From an uncultured Acidimicrobiaceae bacterium (lineage in GTDB: Bacteria; Actinomycetota; Acidimicrobiia; Acidimicrobiales; Bog-793): a stretch of DNA of 64,000 nucleotides. Both the position numbers and the translations under genes were made by a program. The notes under the pieces were generated by a model, which saw only the letters and a list, made by a program, of their open reading frames with translations, searched no databases and was not told the DNA's origin. Shown here in pieces: positions 33,229-48,577 of this stretch (the stretch's first letter is position 1; every line of letters begins with the position of its first letter). Where the stretch lies: NCBI GenBank assembly GCA_963836935.1, contig CAWILM010000030.1, positions 20,148 to 84,147 of the forward strand, given 5' to 3'.

Positions 33229-34009
33229 TCAGGTCAGCTCGTCGCGCAACCGCTGCCTCAGGTGGAGCACCGCCTTGGTGTGGATCTGGCACGCGCTGGC
33301 TCTCGGTCACACCCAGGATCTCGCCGATCTCGGCGAGGTTCAGACCCTCGTAGTAGTACAGCGTGAGCACCTTGCGCTCGCGGTCGTCCAGTCTTTGGAT
33401 CGCCTTCGCGAGCTGTCGCCGGGTCTCCTCAAGCTCGATGGTCGCACCGGGAGCATCTCCTTGGTCCTGCAGGGTGTCGCCGAGCGTCTGGCCACCGCTG
33501 CCCCCCTGGCGGAACAGGACGTCGTCGAGCTGCAGCAGCCCGGCGCGAGAGGTCTGGCGGAGGATGTCGTCGAGGTCGCTCGTCGTCATGTCGAGCTCGT
33601 CGGCAAGCTCGTGATCGGTCGGTGAACGACCGAGCCGGCCTTCGAGCTTGGAGAGCGCGGCATCGACGGCGCGCGCCTTCGCGTGGACCGACCGCGGCAC
33701 CCAGTCGATCGAGCGGAGCTCGTCGAGGATGGCGCCGCGCACGTGGGGCACGCCGTAGGTCTCGAACTTGATCGCCCGCGACGGGTCGAACTTCTCGATG
33801 GCGTCGATCAGCCCGAGGATGCCGTAGCTGACGAGGTCGGAGTAGTCGACATGACTCGGCATGGCGGCGGCGACACGGCCGGCGACGTACTTCACGAGCG
33901 GCGAGTAGTGCAGGATCAGCCGGTCGCGCGCGGACTGGTCCGCGGTCGCCTTGAAATCGGCCCACAGCTCGTCGACGGATTGGATGCGGTCGGTCCCGGT
34001 CTGGGTCAT
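33229..34009 (-). CDS. whiG: FliA/WhiG-family RNA polymerase sigma factor, one frame disruption as assembled
   Basis: Regions 2-4 of a group-3 sigma factor (LILHYSPLVKYVA, YGILGLIDAIEKFD, LTLYYYEGLNLAEIGEILGVTES). The region 4.2 recognition helix ...CQIHTKAVLHLRQRLRDELT+TGA is in the neighbouring frame (junction ~33295). It sits next to rpsB, as whiG does in Streptomyces (from memory). Confidence 0.78.
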
Positions 34010-34893
34010 CAGGCTCTCGGGTGAGCGCTTCGATACGCTCCGACCAGTCGATCGGTGGACACGTGGGTGTAGATCTCCGTGGTTCGCAAGCTCGCGTGAC
34101 CGAGCAGCTCCTGGACGACCCGCAGGTCCGCCCCGCCGTCGACGAGATGGGTCGCGTAGGTGTGGCGGAGCGCGTGGGGATGGGTCGGCACCGGTGAGCG
34201 GCGGTCCAGGACCCGGCGCACGTCGCGCGTGGTCATCTGCCGGCCGCGCCGGTTGAGGAAGAGCGAGCCCGGCGGAGTCGACCCGTTCGCGAGCGCGGCT
34301 CGCCCGGAGGTGACATAGCGGCCGACCGCCTCGGTAGCCGGGTGACTCATGGGCACGCGGCGCTGCTTGCCGCCCTTGCCCCAGACGGTCACCGAGCGGC
34401 TCTTCAGATCGACATCGCCCAAGGCGAGCCCGCAGAGCTCCGCGACTCGCAGACCACTGCCGTAGAGGAGCTCGAGCAGGGCGTCGTCGCGCCTGTCGAC
34501 CGAAGCAGGCAGCTTGGCTCGCGATGGATCCGGCCCGGGCTCGAGGAGAGCCTTCAGCTCCGAAGGTGCCAGCACGCGCGGCAGGCGCGCCTCTCCCTGC
34601 GGGGCCGACAGGCGCCGGGAAGGATCGACACTGATGAGCTCATGGCGGCGCAACCACGCGAAATAACGCCGGATAGCGGCTGCTTTCCTGGCGATCGTCC
34701 TACGGGAGTACCGGCGCGTCGCAAGGTACGCCAAGTAGCGCCGCAGCATGAGGCGGTCGACCTTGCCCGGGTCCGATAATCCGGCCCGCCCCGCCCACGC
34801 CACGAACGCCTCGACGTCGCCCCGGTAAGCCCGGCGGGTCGCCGCCGCGTCCGACGCGAGCGAGCGCACAAAGTCTTCGAGCTCAAAGCCCAC
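34009..34893 (-). CDS. xerC: site-specific tyrosine recombinase XerC/XerD
   Basis: N-terminal SAM-like domain. The catalytic domain has R...HxxR...Y (HALRHTYATHL, LLGHASLRTTEIYTHV). The stop overlaps the sigma start (TGATG). Confidence 0.85.
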   Translation of the reverse strand: MGFELEDFVRSLASDAAATRRAYRGDVEAFVAWAGRAGLSDPGKVDRLMLRRYLAYLATRRYSRRTIARKAAAIRRYFAWLRRHELISVDPSRRLSAPQGEARLPRVLAPSELKALLEPGPDPSRAKLPASVDRRDDALLELLYGSGLRVAELCGLALGDVDLKSRSVTVWGKGGKQRRVPMSHPATEAVGRYVTSGRAALANGSTPPGSLFLNRRGRQMTTRDVRRVLDRRSPVPTHPHALRHTYATHLVDGGADLRVVQELLGHASLRTTEIYTHVSTDRLVGAYRSAHPRA

Positions 34894-37872: not shown

Positions 37873-38379
37873 TCAAGCAGGATGTCGACCTCTGCCACTG
37901 GTCCGGCAACGCCGCAAGCCCTTTTCGGCCCCCAAGACGGGCGGACGGCTCCACCGTCCGACCGGCACCGGCCACGGGCGTTCCCGAAGGTTCGGGGAGA
38001 ACCTTAGGTCTCGACCCCGACGCGAACGAGCCTTCGGGCCGGGTTGGTCCACGCGCGGTGCATCGGACCAGAGCCGCTCCAGGTCGTAGTAACGCCTCGC
38101 CTCGTCCAAGAACACGTGCACCACGAAGCCTCCGTAGTCCAACAACACCCAGCGGGCGTCGTCCAGGCCCTCTACGTAGCGGGGCGAGCCGCCTCCCTGT
38201 GCCTTGACGCGCAGCTCGATCTCCTCGGCGATCGTGCGGACCTGGCGCACGTTGCTCCCGCTCGTGATGACGAAATGGTCTGTGATGCCAAGCAGGTCAC
38301 CGACGTCGAGCACGACGGTCGGATCAAGTGTCTTGGACGAAGCGGCGTCAGCCGCGACGAACACGAAGTCGGCGCGCAA
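37873..38379 (-). CDS. rsfS: ribosome silencing factor RsfS (both ends uncertain)
   Basis: Core DPTVVLDVGDLLGITDHFVITSGSNVRQVRTIAEEIE...RWVLLDYGGFVVHVF....R.YYDLERLW. The only in-frame start near the core is TTG 38379. The ORF continues ~55 aa beyond the usual end. Confidence 0.65.
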   Translation of the reverse strand: MRADFVFVAADAASSKTLDPTVVLDVGDLLGITDHFVITSGSNVRQVRTIAEEIELRVKAQGGGSPRYVEGLDDARWVLLDYGGFVVHVFLDEARRYYDLERLWSDAPRVDQPGPKARSRRGRDLRFSPNLRERPWPVPVGRWSRPPVLGAEKGLRRCRTSGRGRHPA

Positions 38380-38485
38380 CGCTACCGGACGGCCCTTTGC
38401 TCGAGCCGACCGAAGCGGACCGGTCCTGCACGTCGCACAGGACCGGACGCATCTGTCGGTGCGAACCGGAACGTCCCGTGGCGAC

Positions 38486-39097
38486 TCATCTGGGAACAGG
38501 GTACAGGCCGCGTTGGCGGACGACGCGGATGGCTGGCATGGGAACGAGGAAATCCAGGGGGCGCCCCGTGGCAACTCGGTCGCGCAGGTCGGTGCTCGAT
38601 ATCTCCAGTGCCGGCACGTCGACCATGCGGACGTCCCAGCCTTCCAAAGGGCTGTCCGGTCCCGAGGCGTCGATCGTCGTGCCGGGCCGGTTGACCACCA
38701 CCAGGACGACCTTAGACCGAACCTCGTCGATCCGCTCCCAGCCCCCGAGCCCCACGGCAGCATCGGCGCCGACGATCAGGTTGAGCTCGGTGCCGGGCCA
38801 CCGCGCCTTAAGTTCGGCGACCGTATCGGCGGTGTAGGACGGACCGCCGCGCTCGATCTCCATGCCACTCGCCTCGAGGCCTTCGACGCCTTCGACAGCA
38901 GCCTCCACCAGTGCCAAGCGGTCGGCGGCAGGCGTGACAGGGCGGTTGCCCACCTTCTGCCAGGGCTCGTTCGCCACGACGAGCAGGACCCGGTCGAGGT
39001 CGAGCTCATGTCTGGCGTTCACGGCCGCCACGAGGTGACCGACGTGTACGGGGTCAAAGGTCCCCCCGAGAATGCCGAGTCGCCTGAGCCCGCCCAC
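38486..39097 (-). CDS. nadD: nicotinate-nucleotide adenylyltransferase
   Basis: GILGGTFDPVHVGH (HxGH motif) and ISSTDLR. 203 aa, GTG start. Confidence 0.88.
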   Translation of the reverse strand: MGGLRRLGILGGTFDPVHVGHLVAAVNARHELDLDRVLLVVANEPWQKVGNRPVTPAADRLALVEAAVEGVEGLEASGMEIERGGPSYTADTVAELKARWPGTELNLIVGADAAVGLGGWERIDEVRSKVVLVVVNRPGTTIDASGPDSPLEGWDVRMVDVPALEISSTDLRDRVATGRPLDFLVPMPAIRVVRQRGLYPVPR

Positions 39098-39232
39098 GAA
39101 CGAAGCGTAGCGACCGCTCGGAGCCGTCCCGGGCTGCTGTCAGTCCGCGAGCTCGCCGCTGCCTACTCTGGTGAGGTGGCGAGCACATCGGATTCTGTGC
39201 AACAGGGGCTCTTCGGCGACGCCGTCCCGGCA

Positions 39233-40591
39233 ATGCCGGTACCGACGCCCCAAGCGGGATGGCACCCGACCTCGTGGCACACACGCCCCGCCGCCCAGCA
39301 GCCGCCCTGGCCGGACCGCGCGGCCCATGCGGAGGTCCTCGCCCAGCTCGCGAAGCTGCCACCGCTCGTGTTCGCCGGTGAGGCGCGTCGGCTCACCCGT
39401 GCTCTCGGAGAGGTCGCCGCCGGCAAGGCGTTCCTCCTCCAGGCCGGCGACTGCGCCGAGTCCTTCGACGACTTCTCGGCCGACTCGATACGCGACAAGC
39501 TGAAGGTCATCTTGCAGATGGCGGTCGTGCTCACCTACGGCTCGGGCGTGCCGGTCGTGAAAGTGGGGCGCATCGCCGGACAGTTCGCCAAGCCACGCTC
39601 CTCGGCGACCGAGCTCGTCGGCGGAGTCGAGCTGCCCGCGTTCCGGGGCCACATCATCAACGGCGACACGCCGAGCGCGTCGGCGCGGACGCCCGACCCC
39701 CGGCGTATGCTCGCCGCCTACCACCAGTCGGCCTCCACCCTGAACCTGCTGCGTGCCTTCACCAAGGGCGGCTTCGCCGACCTGTCGCAGGTACATCTGT
39801 GGAACCTCGAGTTCCTCGCGACGAGTGCCGAGGGACAGCGCTTCGAGGCGATTGCGGAGGAGATCGACAGAGCGCTCCGGTTCATGAACGCCTGCGGCGT
39901 CGATCTCTCGGTCGACTCGCCCATACACCAGGTCGACCTTTTCACGAGCCACGAGGCACTGCTGCTCGAGTACGAGGAGGCGCTCACCCGCAGGGACTCG
40001 CTCACCGGCGGCTGGTACGACTGCTCCGCCCATCTCGTCTGGATCGGGGAGCGCACGCGCGCCATCGACGGGGCTCATGTCGAGTTCGCGTCGGGAATCG
40101 GGAACCCGGTCGAAGTCAAGCTCGGGCCGAGCGCGACCCCGCCGGAGGCGGTAGCGCTCTGCGAGCGGCTGAACCCGGACCGCGTGCCGGGCAGGCTCAC
40201 CTTCGTGACCCGGATGGGTGTCGACAAGGTCAAGCGCGCCCTTCCGCCCCTTATTCGCGCCGTCAGGACCGCCGGCCACCCGGTGGCCTGGGCGTGCGAC
40301 CCGATGCACGGCAACACCTTCGCCAGCGAGTCCGGCCACAAGACACGTCACTTCGATGACGTGCTCGGGGAGATCCAAGGGTTCTTCGCGGTTCACAAGG
40401 CCGAGGGGACCTGGCCGGGCGGGGTGCACATCGAGTTGACCGGTGACGACGTCACGGAGTGCCTGGGCGGGATCGAGCACATCCGCGAGGCCCAGTTGCC
40501 CTTGCGGTACACGACCACCTGCGACCCGCGCCTGAACGCCCGGCAGTCCACCGACCTCGCCTTTCGCGTGGCCGAGCTCCTGCGCGGATGA
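39233..40591 (+). CDS. aroG: class II 3-deoxy-7-phosphoheptulonate (DAHP) synthase
   Basis: AAQQPPWPD near the N-terminus, FLLQAGDCAESF, and KPRSS...; these are class II DAHPS blocks throughout. The ORF-track start (38204) is antisense read-through, so I chose ATG 39233. Confidence 0.88.
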   Translation: MPVPTPQAGWHPTSWHTRPAAQQPPWPDRAAHAEVLAQLAKLPPLVFAGEARRLTRALGEVAAGKAFLLQAGDCAESFDDFSADSIRDKLKVILQMAVVLTYGSGVPVVKVGRIAGQFAKPRSSATELVGGVELPAFRGHIINGDTPSASARTPDPRRMLAAYHQSASTLNLLRAFTKGGFADLSQVHLWNLEFLATSAEGQRFEAIAEEIDRALRFMNACGVDLSVDSPIHQVDLFTSHEALLLEYEEALTRRDSLTGGWYDCSAHLVWIGERTRAIDGAHVEFASGIGNPVEVKLGPSATPPEAVALCERLNPDRVPGRLTFVTRMGVDKVKRALPPLIRAVRTAGHPVAWACDPMHGNTFASESGHKTRHFDDVLGEIQGFFAVHKAEGTWPGGVHIELTGDDVTECLGGIEHIREAQLPLRYTTTCDPRLNARQSTDLAFRVAELLRG

Positions 40592-40671: not shown

Positions 40672-40789
40672 CCACTCTTAGCGTTCGCATCCGCTCCAGA
40701 ATGCACATCGCTCTCCCGGGCCAGGCGGCAGATCGCCGGCAACGCAAGGCCCGCCTCGAAGCAACGGGGACGCCGGACCATGAGGTGCC

Positions 40790-43700
40790 ATGGCAGTGAC
40801 ATCGGTCATGAGTAGACGGCGCCGACCGAGCCGTCTCGCGATGGTCCCTGTCGCAGCGCTCGTCTTCGCGCTCGGCCTCGGCACCGGCGCGTGTTTCGGC
40901 GCCGGTGGTGCCGGCGCCACGCCGCCGCGCGTCTCCAAGCCGGGCGGGAGCATGCCGCTGGCCGTGACGCCCGAGATCGCCTACGACCTGGCGGAGGCCA
41001 ACGGCGAGGTGGAGTCACTCGGCGGAGCCGCCTACTACGGCTCCGCCTACGGCACGTACCTCACCGCTCCCATCGTCGCCATCATCGCCACGCCCGACCT
41101 CAAGGGTTACTGGCTGATCGGCGCCGACGCCAGCGTCTACCCGTTCGGGGACGCCCGCAACGAGGGCGGCGCCGGGGGCAGCGTGCGGGCGGACCCCGTC
41201 GTCGCTGCCGCCGCGACCCCGGACGGCGACGGCTACTGGCTCGTCACCTCGTCCGGCAAGGTGATGGCCTTCGGCGACGCCGTGAGCTACGGCTCGATCA
41301 CGACGCCGATAAGGGCCCACGTCGTCGGGATCGTGGCCACGCCCGACGGGAAGGGATACTGGATCGCCTGCGACACCGGCGGAGTCTTCAACTTCGGTGA
41401 CGCGGTCTTCCACGGTTCCGCCAAGGCCGGCACGCCCGGACTCGGCATCGTCGCGATCGCGGCGACGCAGGACGGCGGCGGGTACTGGCTCGCTGACGCG
41501 GACGGCGCCGTGTTCAGCTTCGGCGACGCGCCCCACCTCACACCGCCATCCCCGGCGCACTTCCCATCTCCCGTCGTGGGCTTCAGCGTCACCCCTGACG
41601 GCGAAGGGGCTTGGCTGGCGGAGGAGAACGGCACCGTCGTGAACCTCGGCACGGCCGCCGCCCACGGCTCGCTCGCCGACTTGCTGGCCACCTCCCCCGT
41701 GACCTCTATCGCCGCGGTCGTGGTGCCGCCTCCGAGCGACGTCGCCTACGACCTGGCGGAGGCAAACGGCAAGGTGGAGGCGCTCGGGGGAGCCGCCTAC
41801 TACGGCTCCGCCTACGGCTTGGCGCTTGTCGCACCCACTGTCGCCCTGGTCTCCACGCCCGACCGCAAGGGTTACTGGCTCGTCGGCGCCGACGGGAGCG
41901 TTTACCCGTTCGGGGATGCCCTCTACGAGGGCAGCGCCGGGGGCAAGGTGAGGCCGGACCCGGTCGTTGCCGCCGCCGCGACGCCGGATGGCGCCGGCTA
42001 CTGGCTGGTCACCTCGTCCGGGGCAGTGCTGGTCTTCGGCGACGCCGTCAACTACGGCTCGCTCTCGCCGACGATCGGGGCGCACGTCGTGTCGATAGTG
42101 GCCACGAAGGACGGAGGGGGGTACTGGATCACGCTCAGCTCCGGGAGCGTGTTCACCTTCGGGGACGCCCAGCTGTACTGGGGGCCGGACGTCGCAGGGC
42201 TCCCGATCGTCGCGATGGCGGCGACGCCGGACGGCGGCGGGTACTGGCTCCTGGCCGCGGACCGCACCGTGTTCAGCTTCGGGGACGCGCAGCAGCTCGG
42301 ACCGCTGTCCCCGGCGAGTGCCAAGTCTCCGGTCGTGGGATTCACCGTCACGCCCGAAGGCACAGGGGCATGGATAGCAGAGGAGAACGGCACTGTCGTC
42401 CATCTCGGCAGAGCGACCGCCCACGGTTCGCTCACCGCTGTGCCGGCCGCCTCGCCGGTCACCTCGATCACCGCCATCCTGATGCCGACCCCGGACACCC
42501 TCGCCTACGACCTGGCGGAGGCAAACGGAAGAGTGGCCGCCGTCGGCAGAGCCGCCTATTACGGGTCGGCCTTCGGCAAGCACCTCGTCGCTCCCATCGT
42601 CGCCCTCGTCTCCACGCCCGATCGCAAGGGTTACTGGCTGATCGGCGCCGACGGCAGCGTCTACGCCTTCGGGGACGCCGGGTACAAGGGCGGGGCGGGG
42701 GGCAAAGTGCGGCGCGACCCCGTCGCGGCCGCCGCCACAACTCCGGACGGCGGCGGGTACTGGCTCGTCACTTCTTCCGGCGGTGTGATCGCCTTCGGTG
42801 ACGCGCGGAACCATGGATCGACGACATGCCCGGCCGCGGGGCACGTCATCTCGCTGGTGGCCACCACTGACGGGCAGGGGTACTGGATCGCCTGCAGCAC
42901 CGGGGGCGTCTTCAACTTCGGCGACGCCAGGTTCTACGGTTCGGTGAACGCCGTCACCGCCGGGCTGCCCGTCGTCGCCATGGCGGCGACGCCCGACGAC
43001 GGCGGGTACTGGCTCGCCGACGCCAACGGGACGGTGTTCAGCTTCGGCGACGCGCGCCGCCTCGCCCGGTTCGCGCCTGTGAGGACCGCCTCGCCCATCG
43101 TCGGCCTCGCGGTCACCCCCGACGGCACCGGCGACTGGCTGGCGGAAGAGAACGGGACCGTCCTCAGCTTCGGCACCGCGGCTGTCCACGGCACGCTCAC
43201 GGGCACGCTCGCGACCTCGCCGGTCACCTCCATCGCCGCCATGCCGGTCGAGACGGTCTCCCCACTCAGATACCCGAGTGGCAGCTTCGGCTACGACATC
43301 AACTGGCCCCAGTGCGCCAGGCCCAGCTCGACCGAGACGGCCGCGCTCCCCGGCCCGCCGTCGTATCCGTCCGGCACCCTCAACTACACCGTCGCGGTCG
43401 TCGGCGTCGACGGATGGGCTGTGGGCGATGACAACCCCTGCCTCGAGGCGGAGGTCAAATGGGCGGCGAGTTCGGTCGGGACCGACGGCGCACCCTACGA
43501 GCTCTACATGTTCCTCAACTCCCCGTCGGCGTCGGACACGACCGACCAGGAGGGCCCGGCCGGCACGTGCTCCGCCGTCGCCGCGGCGCGCCAGCCCGCC
43601 TGCCTCGCCTACAACTACGGCTACAACGCCGCCTTGGACGCCGTGCAGTACGCGAGCTCGCAGGGCGCCTCGTCGCCGGTGTGGTGGCTCGACGTCGAGA

Positions 43701-44053
43701 ACGACCTCTGCGGCCAGTACTGGTCCTGCAACCAGGCGCTGAATTCGCTCACGATCCAGGGTGCGCTCGACTACCTGCACTCTTTGCAGATCACTGCCGG
43801 GATCTACTCGACTTCGGTGCAGTGGCAGGGGATCACAGGCGGCTATGTGCCGCCCGGCCCGCAGATCCCCATCTGGGTGGCCGGCGCCTACTGGACCTCA
43901 CCGCCTTACCCGTCGAGCTACGGCTACTACCCGCCTGCGTACCTCGCACCGTACTGCGGCGCGAGGTACGCCTTTGCCGGCGGCGAAACATGGCTGTTGC
44001 AGGAGACGCCCGGACCGAACGACTACCCCTTCGACCCGGACTACGCCTGCTGA
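40790..44053 (+). CDS. secreted/lipo-protein with 18 'GYW...FGDA' beta-propeller-like blades (3 x 6) and a C-terminal glycoside-hydrolase-like domain; function unknown
   Basis: 1087-aa ORF with a good Shine-Dalgarno. The N-terminus has RRRR followed by a hydrophobic stretch and ...LGTGAC. There are three ~255-aa super-repeats of six ~42-aa units each (consensus ..PDGxGYWLvxxdGxVfxFGDAxxxGS..). The C-terminal ~260 aa carries GYDINWPQC, WWLDVE and IYS..WQ motifs. Confidence 0.85.
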   Translation: MAVTSVMSRRRRPSRLAMVPVAALVFALGLGTGACFGAGGAGATPPRVSKPGGSMPLAVTPEIAYDLAEANGEVESLGGAAYYGSAYGTYLTAPIVAIIATPDLKGYWLIGADASVYPFGDARNEGGAGGSVRADPVVAAAATPDGDGYWLVTSSGKVMAFGDAVSYGSITTPIRAHVVGIVATPDGKGYWIACDTGGVFNFGDAVFHGSAKAGTPGLGIVAIAATQDGGGYWLADADGAVFSFGDAPHLTPPSPAHFPSPVVGFSVTPDGEGAWLAEENGTVVNLGTAAAHGSLADLLATSPVTSIAAVVVPPPSDVAYDLAEANGKVEALGGAAYYGSAYGLALVAPTVALVSTPDRKGYWLVGADGSVYPFGDALYEGSAGGKVRPDPVVAAAATPDGAGYWLVTSSGAVLVFGDAVNYGSLSPTIGAHVVSIVATKDGGGYWITLSSGSVFTFGDAQLYWGPDVAGLPIVAMAATPDGGGYWLLAADRTVFSFGDAQQLGPLSPASAKSPVVGFTVTPEGTGAWIAEENGTVVHLGRATAHGSLTAVPAASPVTSITAILMPTPDTLAYDLAEANGRVAAVGRAAYYGSAFGKHLVAPIVALVSTPDRKGYWLIGADGSVYAFGDAGYKGGAGGKVRRDPVAAAATTPDGGGYWLVTSSGGVIAFGDARNHGSTTCPAAGHVISLVATTDGQGYWIACSTGGVFNFGDARFYGSVNAVTAGLPVVAMAATPDDGGYWLADANGTVFSFGDARRLARFAPVRTASPIVGLAVTPDGTGDWLAEENGTVLSFGTAAVHGTLTGTLATSPVTSIAAMPVETVSPLRYPSGSFGYDINWPQCARPSSTETAALPGPPSYPSGTLNYTVAVVGVDGWAVGDDNPCLEAEVKWAASSVGTDGAPYELYMFLNSPSASDTTDQEGPAGTCSAVAAARQPACLAYNYGYNAALDAVQYASSQGASSPVWWLDVENDLCGQYWSCNQALNSLTIQGALDYLHSLQITAGIYSTSVQWQGITGGYVPPGPQIPIWVAGAYWTSPPYPSSYGYYPPAYLAPYCGARYAFAGGETWLLQETPGPNDYPFDPDYAC
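40976..43258. repeat. three tandem super-repeats of ~765/759 bp inside the propeller gene
   Basis: Units start at 40976, 41741 and 42500 (each ..gcctacgacctggcggaggc.aacgg..). Units 1 and 2 also share ggagccgcctactacggctccgcctacgg. Confidence 0.9.
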
Positions 44054-44829
44054 GCCGGCCGCGATCCGTGTCCTGGGCGCGGGCCGCTGTCCGGCTCCTC
44101 CCGGCGGACCCACGGGGGGGCGGCAATCCGCAGTCCACGCGGCTCCGCCGGCCGGCGCGGATCGAGGTGGGCGGCGTCGTTGAACCGGACGAGCCACCAC
44201 CGGGACCCCGTGAAGGCCCACTCGGTCATCGACGCGTTGTCCGGGAACAGCCGCACCAGGCTCCCGTGCGAAGGCAGGTCGAGGAACCGCACGAGGGAAG
44301 CCTCGATGATGCCTCCGTGGCCCGACACGACCACGAGCTCGCCCGGATGCGCCTCGGCGAGGCTGTACAGGGCGTCCTCGGCCCTGTCGAGGAGCTCGAT
44401 CCAGCTTTCCCCGCCTGGCGAGAGCGGCCGTTCGGGATCGTCCCCCGGCAACAGGCGCCCGTAGCGCTCGTCGAATTCGCTCCATGTGAGCCCGTCCGCC
44501 TCGCCCGGGTGCCGCTCGCAGAGCGCGCACCTTGCCTCGTAGGTGACCTCCCCGAGGGCCGGGAGCAGGATCTCCGCCGTCTCCACGGCGCGCCGGAGCA
44601 CGCTCGAGTACAGCGCCGCGGCACCGTCGAGCTCGCCCGTGCGCTCGAGGCGGCCGGCGAGGGCGCGGACCTGCAGCCGGCCCCGCGCGGTGAGCCCCCG
44701 GCAACCGAGATGCCCCCCGACCAGGTCCTCGGCGTTGCTCACGGCCTCGCCGTGGCGGATCATGACGAGCCGGGTGCCGGGCGCAACGCGCCTTTCGGGC
44801 GCGAACTGCCGCGCGAAGGCGATCGCCAT
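44041..44829 (-). CDS. histidine phosphatase (phosphoglycerate mutase-like) family protein
   Basis: RHGE catalytic motif (LVMIRHGEAVSN) and a second His motif (VVVSGHGGII). Start placed at ATG 44829. The 3' end overlaps the convergent propeller gene by 13 nt. Confidence 0.8.
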   Translation of the reverse strand: MAIAFARQFAPERRVAPGTRLVMIRHGEAVSNAEDLVGGHLGCRGLTARGRLQVRALAGRLERTGELDGAAALYSSVLRRAVETAEILLPALGEVTYEARCALCERHPGEADGLTWSEFDERYGRLLPGDDPERPLSPGGESWIELLDRAEDALYSLAEAHPGELVVVSGHGGIIEASLVRFLDLPSHGSLVRLFPDNASMTEWAFTGSRWWLVRFNDAAHLDPRRPAEPRGLRIAAPPWVRREEPDSGPRPGHGSRPAQQA

Positions 44830-44883
44830 GGCACGAACAATACCGGCTGGTCTCACCGCCAGGGCGCCTCGCGGGCGCCCGCG

Positions 44884-46383
44884 TCACACCAGGTGCTCGA
44901 CGAAAGCCTGCAGCTGGCGCAGGTTCCGGCACTCGTAGGCGGCGTCGCAGTACTGGGCGTACTGCTCGAGGATCGAGTCACCGCTCCCCCAGTACGAACG
45001 GGGCTCCGGGTTCAACCAGAACACTCGGCGCGCCCGGTTGCGAAGCTCGCGGACGACCCAGGCCTGGGAGGCGTGATAGTTGTTCCGGGCGTCGCCGAGC
45101 AGGAGGATGCTCGCCTTCGGCCCGATCTCATGGCCCCACCGTTCGTAGAAGACGGTGAGGGCGTGCCCGTAGTCGGAGTGCCCGTCCACCCAGACCACGT
45201 CCGCCTCGAGGTTGACGCGGTGCACCGCCTCGGTCACGGTGTCGGATCGGTCGAAGATCCCGGTCACCTCGTCGATGCCGTCGATGAACACGAAGCTGCG
45301 CACCTTGGAGAACTGGGATGCGATCGCGTAGACCAGGTGGAGCGTGAAACGGGCGAACGCCGCCACCGAGCCGGAGATGTCTGCGATCACCCAGATCTCG
45401 GGCTTGGACTGTTTGGGATGCTTGAAGCGCGGCTCGGCCGGCACGCCCCCGGAGGAGAGGGAGTGCCGCATGGTCGAGCGGAAGTCCAAGGGTCCTTTGC
45501 GCAGGTGACGGCGCTTGCGGGCAAGGCGGGTGGCCAGCTTGCGGGTGAGGGGCTGGATCGCCTGGCGCATTGACTCGAGCTCGTCGCGCGTGGCGTGCAT
45601 GAATTCCACGTCCTCCGGCAGGGGCCTGCGAACGCTCCGGGCCAGCGCCTCGGCTCCCCGGTCGGCGACCAGCCGGCGCCTTATCTCGGCTTCGATCTCT
45701 TTCTTGAGCTCGTCAACGCGGGCCCGGTACTCGTCTTCGAGCAGCCGTTCCTCCAAGGCGGTCAGGCGGCCCGGGCGCCGGCCTCGCAGCACCGGTCCCC
45801 CCGGGGCCTCCTCTTCCGCGGCGCCGGAGGGGCCGCCACCGTCGCCCGCCAGCGCCCGTGCCTCGGCCACGAGCCGGGCGAGCACGCTGTCGAGGTCGAG
45901 ATTCCGCAACGTCCTGTACAGGTAGTAGGTGCCACCGACGGGACGCCCCGCCTCAATCGCGGCAAAGCGCGCCACCGCGACCCGGGCGACGGCGCCGAGC
46001 AGGACCTGATCGCCGTCCCGGAGGGCTTTGAACAGCATCGCCGCGATCTCCTCGGGCGTGACCGGCTCCGAGCTGCCGGCTTGCGAAGGCGCGCCCTCGC
46101 CCTCCCCCGCGGCCGGCCCGAGGCGCGCCTCGGCAGAACTGTCATCCTCGCTGACCGAGAATTGCGGGCCTCGCATCGAGAAGTAGATCTCGAAGGCGGT
46201 GTCGAAAGCCCGCCAGTGGTTCGCTGATTTCACAAGGGTCGCGCCAAGGGCGAACTTGATCGCTTGTCGGTCCTCGAGCGGCAGGTGGCAGACGGCCTCG
46301 GCCGCGTCGGCCTCCTCGGCCACCGACACGGGAAGCCCGGCGCGGCGCAGCTCCGCCACGAACCCGGTGAGGACGTCAAGCAC
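44884..46383 (-). CDS. VWA domain protein (CoxE-like)
   Basis: The N-terminal region resembles the CoxE family ([20 protein letters not shown]...). The C-terminal VWA domain has the MIDAS motif DISGS (VIADISGSV). The GTG start overlaps the MoxR stop by 8 nt. Confidence 0.8.
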   Translation of the reverse strand: MLDVLTGFVAELRRAGLPVSVAEEADAAEAVCHLPLEDRQAIKFALGATLVKSANHWRAFDTAFEIYFSMRGPQFSVSEDDSSAEARLGPAAGEGEGAPSQAGSSEPVTPEEIAAMLFKALRDGDQVLLGAVARVAVARFAAIEAGRPVGGTYYLYRTLRNLDLDSVLARLVAEARALAGDGGGPSGAAEEEAPGGPVLRGRRPGRLTALEERLLEDEYRARVDELKKEIEAEIRRRLVADRGAEALARSVRRPLPEDVEFMHATRDELESMRQAIQPLTRKLATRLARKRRHLRKGPLDFRSTMRHSLSSGGVPAEPRFKHPKQSKPEIWVIADISGSVAAFARFTLHLVYAIASQFSKVRSFVFIDGIDEVTGIFDRSDTVTEAVHRVNLEADVVWVDGHSDYGHALTVFYERWGHEIGPKASILLLGDARNNYHASQAWVVRELRNRARRVFWLNPEPRSYWGSGDSILEQYAQYCDAAYECRNLRQLQAFVEHLV

Positions 46384-47332
46384 GGGCGCTCTGTCCGTTC
46401 CGGGGTCGGCGGTCAGTACCCGGACAGCGACCGCGAGCCTCCTTTGCCGCGACCTCGATGTCGGACCGGTGCTTCAAGAGCACGTGCAGAGTGGAGCGCG
46501 CCGTGTCGGCGTCGACGGCCTCGATCCCGAGCAGCACGAGCGTCCGGGCCCAGTCGATCGTCTCGGAGATGGAGGGGTGCTTCTTCAAGTCGAGCGCCCG
46601 CAGCGACCGGACGATCCTCGCGACCTGGTCCGCCAGCTCTTCGCTCACTTGCGGGACCTTGGCGAGCACGATCGCCCGTTCGCGCTCGAGGGTCGGGTAG
46701 TCGAGGTGCAAGAACAGGCAACGTCGTTTCAGGGCCTCGGAAAGGTCCCGGGTGTTGTTGGAGGTGAGGAACACGAGGGGGATCTGGGTGGCACGGATCG
46801 TGCCGAGCTCCGGGATCGAGACCTGGTAGTCGGAAAGCACCTCGAGGAGCAGCGCCTCGGTCTCGATCTCGAGACGGTCGATCTCGTCGACGAGCAGCAC
46901 GACCGGATCGGTGGCGCGGATCGCCTCGAGCAGGGGCCGGGTCAAGAGGAACTCCTCGGAGAACAGATCCTCCTCGAGCGACTCCCAGCCGGGCGGTCTT
47001 GCGCCGCCACCTTCTTCGGCCCCGCGCTCGACCTGGATGCGCAAGAGCTGTTTCTTGTAGTTCCACTCGTAGAGCGCCTTGGCCTCGTCAAGACCCTCGT
47101 AGCACTGCAGGCGTATGAGCCGGGCGTGAAGGAACGATGCCGTCGCCTTCGCGAGCTCGGTCTTGCCGGTGCCGGCCGGGCCCTCGACGAGGATGGGCTT
47201 GGCAAGCCTGTCGCCGAGGTACACGACGCTCGACAGGCCGTCGTCGGCGATGTAGCCGGCTGACGCCAGCCCTTGTCGAACCTCGTCGACCGATCGAAAA
47301 CGCGGCGCAGCCTGCCCGGGGCCAGCGATCAC
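46376..47332 (-). CDS. MoxR/CoxD-like AAA+ ATPase
   Basis: Walker A GPAGTGKT, Walker B LLVDEIDR, and sensor/arginine-finger region [16 protein letters not shown]. The ORF track fuses it to proA only because of the proA frameshift. GTG 47332 overlaps the corrected proA stop (GTGA). Confidence 0.85.
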
Positions 47333-48577
47333 GTCCGGATCTGCCCTTCCCCGTAGACGACGTACTTGACGCAGGTCAGCTCTCTCAGGCCCATCGGCCC
47401 CCGTGCGTGCAGCTTCTGGGTCGAGATGCCGACCTCGGCACCAAGGCCGAGCTTCTCCGCCGTCGATGAACCTCGTCGAGGCGTTGACGAGCACGGCTGC
47501 CGCGTCCACCTGCCGGACAAAGCGCGCGGCGGCCCCGAGGTCCGAGGTGATGATGGCCTCCGAGTGCCCTGAGCCGAACCGCGCGATATGCGAGATCGCC
47601 GCATCGATGTCGTCCACGACGCCGACGGCGAGCTCGAGCGCCAGGAACTCCGTGGCGAAGTCCGTCTCGGTCGCCTGCCGGGACCCCGGCAGCAGGGGCC
47701 TCGCGCGATCGTCGGCCGCGAGCACGACGCCTTCCAACGCGCGGCTCATCCGCGGCAGGAACTCAGCGGCCACATCTGCGTGCACCAACAGCGTCTCCGC
47801 CGCGTTGCAGACACTCGGCCTTTGCGTCTTCGCATTGACGACGATGCGCTCTGCCATGTCGAGATCGGCCGCCGCATCGACGTAGACGTGGCAGTTCCCG
47901 TCTCCGTCGAGCACATAGGGAACAGTCGCTTGCTCGAGGATCATCGCGAGCAGCGCCGGCCCGCCCCGAGGGATCAGGCAGTCGATGACACCACGCAACC
48001 GGACGAACTCGACGGCGGTCTCGTGCGCGGTGTCCTCTACCAGAAGGACGGCGTCGGCCGGCAGCCCGGCCTTCTCGAGACCCTGGCGAAACGAGGCGGC
48101 GATGACGCGATTGGACTCGAGAGCCCCGGCTGACCCCCTCAGCAACACCGCATTGCCCGCCTTGAGGCACAGCGCCGCGGCGTCGGCAGTGACGTTCGGG
48201 CGGTTCTCGTAGATGATCCCGACGACCCCGAGCGGGACGCGCACGCGCGCGACGCGAAGCCCGTTCGGGCGCACGTAGCCTTCGACGACCTCACCCACCG
48301 GATCGGCCAGCAGCGCCACCGAGCGCAGGCCCGCCGCCATGGCAGCCACGCGTGCCTCGGTGAGGCGGAGCCGGTCGACCACCGTCGGCGACGCGCCGGA
48401 CGCGACCGACCGTTCGACGTCGCTGGCGTTCGCGCTCAGGATTTCGTCGGACCGGTCGAAGAGGCGATCGGCAGCCGACGCGAGTGCCGCGTCCTTCGCC
48501 GGGGAAGAGAGGGTGGCGACAAGCCGGGCAGCCGTCTTCGCGCGCCGGCCGAGCTCGGGCAGTGACGTCGTCGACAT
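47329..48577 (-). CDS. proA: glutamate-5-semialdehyde dehydrogenase, one frame disruption as assembled
   Basis: ProA sequence runs from [17 protein letters not shown]... through ...[11 protein letters not shown]. The conserved end [40 protein letters not shown]+TGA is in the 47329..47604 frame. The junction is near 47458-47465. Confidence 0.88.

Follow-up and report, generated by a model that had tools for sequence, protein, structure and literature searches.

A predicted exported protein of Acidimicrobiales joins tandem six-bladed propeller-like modules to a divergent GH25-fold domain

The propeller gene

The window, by which we mean the whole stretch of 64,000 nucleotides analyzed here (contig CAWILM010000030.1 of assembly GCA_963836935.1, positions 20,148 to 84,147), belongs to an uncultured Acidimicrobiaceae bacterium and contains, at 40790-44053 of its forward strand, an open reading frame (ORF) of 1087 codons plus stop, which frame begins with ATG and is present as an earlier note, made from the DNA letters, had described. 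This ORF, henceforth the propeller gene, encodes a protein with a signal-like N-terminus, three tandem copies of a propeller-like module, and a C-terminal domain with the predicted fold of the GH25 lysozymes. Its third-position GC content is 0.90—the highest value among the long ORFs of the window, whose GC content is 68-70%—as expected for a real gene of this GC-rich genome. The ribosome-binding site proposed earlier can be read in the sequence as a Shine–Dalgarno-like GAGGTG at 40782-40787 (+), which motif ends 2 nt before the ATG (4 nt for the GAGG core); and because an in-frame TGA occupies 40781-40783, just upstream from the ATG, position 40790 is the first possible start, with no longer N-terminus. 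The orthologue of the closest relative, at locus L002, begins identically (MAVTSIM...). No Rfam RNA or riboswitch was found upstream from the propeller gene, and neither a consensus promoter nor an intrinsic terminator was found at it.

Three six-bladed propeller-like modules

When run on the protein and on the six-frame translation of the window, a hidden Markov model (HMM) of the blade unit returned 18 units, with a period of 41-46 aa, in the propeller protein and none elsewhere in the window. Twelve of those 18 follow the canonical pattern P-h-V-A-h-A-x-T-P-D-G-x-G-Y-W-h...G-x-V-h-x-F-G-D-A...G-S, and the other six—always the first and the last blade of each super-repeat—are degenerate, the first reading AYDLAEANGxV..LGGAAYYGSA and the last GAWLAEENGTV..LG.AAAHGSL. 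Propeller 1 (aa 63-317, 255 aa; 40976-41740, +) comprises six blades, the first and sixth being degenerate, followed by the strand SPVTSIAA and a Pro-rich linker; propeller 2 (aa 318-570, 253 aa; 41741-42499, +) comprises six blades and a closing strand, in six regular strand triplets; and propeller 3 (aa 571-825, 255 aa; 42500-43264, +) has six blades and the closing strand SPVTSIAAMPV. The three super-repeats are pairwise 66-70% identical in protein and 73-78% in DNA, and the DNA self-identity has its maxima at offsets of 759, 765, and 1524 nt, so that the 18 units, the three super-repeats, and the period of 765/759 bp read beforehand from the letters are all recovered, with a regularity far beyond that of chance.

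In the full-length AlphaFold2 model (mean predicted local-distance difference test, pLDDT, 79.7), each unit of ~42 aa forms a strand triplet and each super-repeat contains six such units; the pLDDT exceeds 90 across most of super-repeats 2 and 3 and is lowest, at 60-85, in super-repeat 1, and no ordered structure is predicted for the signal region or the Pro-rich junctions. Foldseek searches with the repeat region retrieved tandem multi-propeller proteins at E-values of 1e-21 to 1e-15 and template-modelling (TM) scores below 0.3, which are generic propeller matches. As modelled, the repeats are tandem six-bladed β-propellers with three clear strands per blade, in line with the propeller-like modules first suspected; within this predicted fold, a profile match to the C-terminal domain of GyrA, described below, leaves the strand topology of a β-pinwheel as an alternative to that of a propeller.

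As regards the closure of each ring, the orthologues that have a single propeller open at the second strand of blade 1 and carry an extra conserved strand after blade 6, and in the AlphaFold2 model blade 1 of each super-repeat has only two strands that belong to it, and blade 6 is followed by SPVTSI[AT]A, modelled confidently as a strand. Because the ends of the single-propeller orthologues and the strand count of blade 1 in the model agree, each super-repeat probably closes into a propeller independently of the others, its C-terminal strand acting as the velcro.

The blade family

Searches of Pfam and NCBIfam with the whole protein, a single super-repeat, the N-terminus, or the C-terminal domain gave nothing above the cut-offs; neither the whole protein nor a single super-repeat attained the gathering score of the WD40, RCC1, NHL, Kelch, PQQ, YVTN, Reg_prop, or Tectonin models; and a search of the PDB sequences with the whole protein yielded just YVTN-type chains at E-values of 0.06-0.15. 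A profile built from 37 orthologous single propellers produced faint matches to the C-terminal β-pinwheel of GyrA (3no0, E 6.9e-5), to the RCC1-like domain (RLD) of HERC2 (E 3.6e-3), and to UTP4. Pfam scans of the individual propellers gave matches on E-value only: to the short repeat models Reg_prop (8/37), RCC1_2 (7/37), and Tectonin (3/37), together with scattered ones to DUF4859 and DUF5818. The GyrA pinwheel and the RCC1-like, Reg_prop, Tectonin, and YVTN families resemble the present modules in being six-bladed all-β toroids with units of ~40-50 aa, but the blades described here differ from them in their GYW / FGDA / GS signature and their 42-aa period. To judge from these profile comparisons, the GYW/FGDA blades appear to constitute a separate family without a curated model, in agreement with the initial impression that they lay outside the characterised families. 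The further remark that the motif abounds in uncharacterised actinobacterial proteins also proved sound, in that 7,648 of 8,000 scored candidates were significant (at least 7,600 clusters), mostly from metagenome bins of Acidimicrobiales or Actinomycetota.

The C-terminal domain

The C-terminal domain (aa ~831-1087; 43280-44050, +), as defined by AlphaFold2, Foldseek, and family conservation, contains the motifs FGYDINWPQC, WWLDVE, and AGIYSTSVQW. With a query of aa ~819-1087, a word-indexed search retrieved 399 clusters and an exhaustive profile search 2,433 representatives at 50% identity, essentially none of which has a Pfam annotation; for the members labelled GH25 by NCBI and JGI, the Pfam scan gave just PF08924, P0224 scoring 16.3 bits against a cut-off of 27.2 bits.

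The AlphaFold2 model of this domain, obtained from the family alignment (mean pLDDT 86.6, predicted TM-score 0.89), contains eight β-strands and five helices and, as predicted, is the (β/α)5-β3 barrel of the solved GH25 enzymes. In Foldseek searches against the PDB the top seven matches were all GH25 lysozymes, with probabilities of 0.99-1.0, among them LytC (2wwd), cellosyl (1jfx), the enzyme of Aspergillus fumigatus (2x8r), Cpl-1 (1oba), and PlyB (2nw0); and in BFVD, a collection of viral structures, the top 19 were all phage lysozymes. The GH25- or Rv2525c-like barrel that the motifs had suggested is therefore recovered at the level of the modelled fold, and the domain may be described as a branch, divergent and without a curated model, of the barrel superfamily of GH25/Rv2525c type. 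A weak link at the sequence level comes from nine of 114 family representatives, which match PF08924 or PF01183 below the thresholds. Since searches of PHROGs and a tblastn search of 50,697 phage genomes with the C-terminal domain gave no match, there is no sign of a recent origin from a phage endolysin.

The family alignments conserve GYDISWPQC (the Asp in at least 90%), NPCL, AYNYGYN, GIYST..QW, WVAG, and a C-terminal D.DYAC, along with WWLD[IV]E, whose two Trp, Asp, and Glu vary hardly or not at all. The motifs succeed one another as in Cpl-1: the Asp of strand 1, NPCL after strand 2, the D-x-E of strand 4, the W-V-A-G of strand 6, and an F-D near the C-terminus. Asp836 (GYD-IN, at the end of strand 1; 43295-43297, +), conserved in at least 90% of the sequences, is a candidate equivalent of the Cpl-1 Asp10, and Asp968-Val-Glu970 (WWLDVE, at the end of strand 4; 43691-43699, +), with an invariant Glu and an invariant or nearly invariant Asp, is the candidate catalytic D-x-E. 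The complete or near invariance of D836, D968, and E970 throughout the family suggests that the domain is an active enzyme. Six Cys residues of the domain are likewise conserved family-wide, and with one of them the protein ends.

Just after the D-x-E lies a further pair of Cys (DLCGQYWSC, aa 974-980; 43709-43729), which many of the more distant members lack and which may form an additional disulfide near the active site. In addition, P0241 (818 aa), which scores highest among the members of the catalytic family that fall outside this clade, combines three CWB2 repeats with two GH25-like profile stretches; on that profile assignment, the catalytic domain is used with classical wall-binding modules too.

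Distribution and history of the propeller number

A scan of one genome per GTDB species gave 317 loci with the C-terminal family, and the following analyses concern the best 80 of those 317. Metagenome-assembled genomes (MAGs) of Acidimicrobiaceae/Acidimicrobiales, sampled in peat, soil, and water, account for nearly all of the 80, and these genomes carry several paralogues each; the reconstructed genes share a single architecture whose blade number is 6, 12, or 18, and more than 20 species representatives have the form with 18 blades (~1,100 aa). In the window the propeller gene is preceded by a class-II DAHP synthase gene and followed by convergent His-phosphatase, VWA (CoxE), and AAA genes, and these DAHP synthase and His-phosphatase-VWA flanks are kept in 47 of the 80 loci (29 six-blade, 3 twelve-blade, and 15 eighteen-blade); eight further 18-blade loci are non-syntenic and represent paralogues. 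The propeller–GH25 gene is, then, a conserved syntenic core gene of the Acidimicrobiales, within which lineages went from one whole propeller to two and then to three.

The super-repeats of the window protein are 85-93% identical to those in the same position of L002, L003, or L005, as against 66-69% to their sister repeats, and the nearest neighbour was the positional orthologue for 31 of 36 super-repeats. Because the identity between positional orthologues exceeds that between sister repeats, the triplication predates these species. The earlier note had read a recent duplication or gene conversion from the DNA identity at the 5' ends of units 1 and 2, where super-repeats 1 and 2 do share 90% of their first 60 nt, a modest similarity in which no run without a mismatch exceeds 30 nt; but the peptide encoded there is the most conserved motif, and no recent conversion is required to account for the similarity. 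With the positional orthology just described, and with the 18-blade form spread over so many species-level genomes, a recent triplication or gene conversion in the window gene is not supported, and we rejected it.

Elsewhere, the super-repeats within one protein are 96-100% identical in some other MAG orthologues (18-blade loci among L002-L028), which degree of identity points to a recent whole-propeller duplication, a gene conversion, or an assembly collapse in those other lineages. At three loci the blade ORF is split from the downstream GH25-like ORF (L013:852-2531, L017:3336-4802, L029:3498-5651), and these would be frameshifted or truncated copies, either pseudogenes or errors of MAG assembly.

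The N-terminus and export

Hydropathy analysis places a predicted signal peptide at aa 1-43 (40790-40918, +), whose N-terminal pattern is kept in the orthologues. The first 15 residues include five Arg, with an n-region SRRRRPSR; aa 16-31 make up the sole strongly hydrophobic segment of the whole protein; and A-G-A at aa 41-43 is a plausible site for signal peptidase I, so that the signal-like character attributed earlier to this N-terminus is retained. In the AlphaFold2 model aa 1-63 are disordered. The mature protein is acidic (87 Asp plus Glu versus 38 Lys plus Arg), and no transmembrane or signalling domain was found in it. The signal-like N-terminus, the six conserved Cys of the catalytic domain, and the lack of any other hydrophobic segment suggest that the protein is exported.

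The suggested lipobox did not withstand the comparison with the orthologues. Its Cys35 (TGAC) is present only in the window protein and in the closest relative, L002, and is absent from most other full-length orthologues (e.g., L003, L004, L005, L007, L008, and L010) as well as from the two-propeller homologues P0001 and P0003; lipidation is therefore no property of the family, and we rejected the lipoprotein assignment on the grounds that Cys35 is not conserved. With respect to the route, the run SRRRRPSRL is without the two hydrophobic residues that the consensus of the twin-arginine translocation (Tat) pathway has after RR-x, and no Tat-signal profile of Pfam or NCBIfam matched. Export would presumably proceed by the Sec pathway, with Tat as the alternative.

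Proposed function and alternatives

We are inclined, by somewhat better than an even judgement, to regard the protein as a secreted modular peptidoglycan hydrolase, that is, as an autolysin-type muramidase with wall-binding propellers. After export by means of its signal peptide, the three autonomous six-bladed propellers would make multivalent contact with a repeated cell-wall component and so hold the C-terminal GH25-fold muramidase against the sacculus, where that domain would cleave glycan strands in wall remodelling or daughter-cell separation, with catalysis by the Asp of strand 1 and the D-x-E pair. A wall-targeting role of the propellers is supported from two directions: other members of the catalytic family carry CWB2, LysM, SH3_3, or CBM modules in the position of the propellers (some adding a second lytic domain, Amidase_2 or M23), and the blades, for their part, are fused elsewhere to CHAP, Amidase_3, Amidase_2, SpoIID, and Amidase_6 domains.

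Among known systems the nearest parallels are the pneumococcal LytC, whose structure matches that of the catalytic domain best, and Cpl-1 of phage Cp-1, within the top five and with the same order of conserved acidic motifs, since both combine a repeat-built wall-targeting module with a muramidase domain of the GH25 fold. In LytC, as in the propeller protein, the repeats lie N-terminal to the catalytic domain. The targeting module of those two proteins is, however, a choline-binding solenoid rather than a β-propeller, no significant sequence similarity is found, and the present barrel is ~60 aa larger, has six conserved Cys, and has its strands 1 and 2 separated by a long insertion. Cellosyl of Streptomyces coelicolor and the fungal GH25 enzyme (2x8r) gave the best TM-scores (TMt 0.59-0.66) and are likewise secreted (β/α)5-β3 barrels with a D-x-E, but are single-domain proteins belonging to PF01183; GH25 muramidases are described in PMC7954357. 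CWB2, LysM, SH3b, SLH, and the LGFP repeats of Corynebacterium resemble the blades in being shared among many secreted enzymes, and modules of the CWB2, LysM, and SH3 types also resemble them in their place beside the catalytic domain; all of these have, nevertheless, unrelated folds and no sequence relationship with the blades, and for the propellers a binding to the wall is a proposal. LGFP domains have been reported to interact with the peptidoglycan layer (PMC12113857), which comparison we draw as a functional analogy only. The expectation of a new type of envelope enzyme consequently goes too far: modular autolysins and endolysins already known have this layout, in which targeting repeats accompany a hydrolase of the GH25 fold, and the architecture is widespread rather than unique to the window; what appears new, to judge from profiles and models, is the kind of targeting module—a β-propeller family found in no library and used one to three times—and a large, divergent catalytic family without a curated model. 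The searchable literature contained nothing on either family.

Several observations weigh against this assignment. The profile searches proposed in the earlier note gave no support, as the C-terminal query fell below all cut-offs, with no match to PF01183 (at E-values up to 10) or to PF08924; the C-terminal profile found no match among the PDB sequences; and an hhalign comparison with Cpl-1 was non-significant (probability <2%), the GH25 side of that comparison being narrow, in that the Cpl-1-seeded homologue search and the viral-contig scan gave relatives at least 80% identical and the PDB added one partial sequence. That non-significant alignment nonetheless pairs WWLDVE with LVLDYE (D92/E94 of Cpl-1), IWVAG with LWIAG, and FDPD with FDKN (D182). 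The Foldseek TM-scores to the GH25 lysozymes are modest, at 0.35-0.66; we know of no demonstrated lytic activity for Rv2525c, a GH25-fold relative; and for all members the function is extrapolated from sequences and modelled structures. Furthermore, the fusion partners of the blades extend to GH43, cellulase, subtilisin, kumamolisin, lipase, beta-lactamase-like, and adhesin-like domains, a spread of the kind found with surface-retention modules such as SLH or CWB2; the blades may therefore serve for retention at the surface or for substrate binding in general, without being specific for peptidoglycan.

That last consideration leads to the alternative that survives best, and which we nevertheless deem unlikely: that the C-terminal domain is a glycosidase or an Rv2525c-like non-lytic glycan binder acting on an envelope polymer other than peptidoglycan, such as a secondary wall polysaccharide or an exopolysaccharide, which polymer the propellers would recognise. 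Besides the fusions with GH43, cellulase, and other non-peptidoglycan enzymes, it can draw on the sub-threshold matches among 114 family representatives, which are slightly more numerous for PF08924 (6/114, best E 3.6e-5) than for PF01183 (3/114, best E 1.2e-3), and on an Arg-rich RRRR N-terminus that recalls the Tat export of Rv2525c. That protein of Mycobacterium tuberculosis, the PF08924 representative, shares with the present one an actinobacterial origin, an Arg-rich signal, a GH25 relationship, and, as predicted here, export, but has no propellers and does not appear among the top 50 Foldseek matches, whose first ranks the GH25 lysozymes hold. The partners of the catalytic family, moreover, are mostly peptidoglycan-related (CWB2, LysM, SH3, Amidase_2, M23), no Tat-signal profile was matched, and six conserved Cys suit an oxidative folding after Sec better than they do export by Tat.

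A muramidase could also be directed outward, and the fold shared with the secreted lysozyme cellosyl (1jfx), the several paralogues per genome—including the eight non-syntenic 18-blade loci—and a propeller copy number that varies, with 96-100% identical repeats in some MAGs as in fast-evolving recognition modules, would all fit a secreted bacteriolytic weapon against competitors, comparable to the Streptomyces cellosyl, whose propellers recognise the wall of the prey. We hold this to be rather improbable for the window copy, which resides in a strongly conserved housekeeping neighbourhood in more than 45 species, has no adjoining immunity-like or secretion-system gene, and consists of super-repeats whose conservation between species in each position resembles purifying selection rather than diversification; on account of that housekeeping synteny and of the purifying selection on each propeller, a physiological autolysin is favoured over an antibacterial weapon. 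Least probable of all, in our estimation, is that the propellers are a protein–protein platform or a surface receptor or sensor, docking for example to the divisome, the elongasome, or an S-layer instead of binding glycans, since, even though most of the characterised tandem propellers retrieved by Foldseek (WD40 proteins, Aip1, UTP proteins) bind proteins and the profile has a weak similarity to the GyrA C-terminal and RCC1-like domains, those Foldseek matches are generic, the blades occur on many unrelated secreted enzymes in a manner that suits general anchoring better than a specific partner, and the protein has no transmembrane or signalling domain.

Returning to the wall-bound muramidase, a broader proposal, which we offer tentatively and would not yet back, is that the GYW/FGDA propeller serves throughout the Acidimicrobiia as a surface-anchoring module for a group-specific wall polymer—a counterpart of the SLH, CWB2, LysM, and choline-binding modules—with propeller duplication tuning avidity or reach, and that the catalytic domain founds a new family of GH25-related muramidases. 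The Acidimicrobiia are abundant in soils, peat, and waters, yet almost wholly uncultured, and their envelope biology is essentially unknown; the present locus unites two large families without a curated model (blades in at least 7,600 clusters, the catalytic domain in ~2,400 representatives) and suggests how these bacteria may retain secreted enzymes on the wall. If the propellers do bind the wall, they would provide a handle on its polymers and a new class of targeting domains for engineered lysins, and thousands of "hypothetical proteins" would become annotatable. The stepwise gain of whole propellers within a syntenic orthologue offers, in addition, a clean natural case of domain-number evolution.

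Neighbouring genes

The genes neighbouring the propeller gene in the window are 94-96% identical to those of L002, which assigns the window to a lineage of the Acidimicrobiaceae, and proB, obg, and an RNase E/G gene lie near the propeller gene. The class-II DAHP synthase ORF (38204-40591, +; 795 aa) has its Pfam domain confined to aa 353-790, the first ~350 aa being unmatched; behind that portion could stand an erroneous start call, an extension of the N-terminus, or a distinct gene that lies upstream in the same frame. On the other side, the propeller gene (stop at 44051-44053) and the convergent His_Phos_1 gene (44041-44856, -) share 13 nt at their 3' ends, and no terminator-like hairpin was predicted between the two. 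Beyond the latter, a VWA/CoxE gene (44884-46383, -) adjoins a 733-aa ORF (46376-48577, -) in which an incomplete aldehyde-dehydrogenase-like region (aa 11-284) precedes a MoxR-type AAA ATPase (aa 462-620), an arrangement kept beside the propeller gene in many MAGs; from its domain matches this ORF would be either an unusual fusion or an artefact of ORF calling. Finally, 6 kb upstream, a tyrosine recombinase of the XerC/XerD type (34009-34893, -), with a Phage_integrase domain and a SAM-like N-terminal domain, is probably the chromosomal dimer resolvase and not the integrase of a mobile element.

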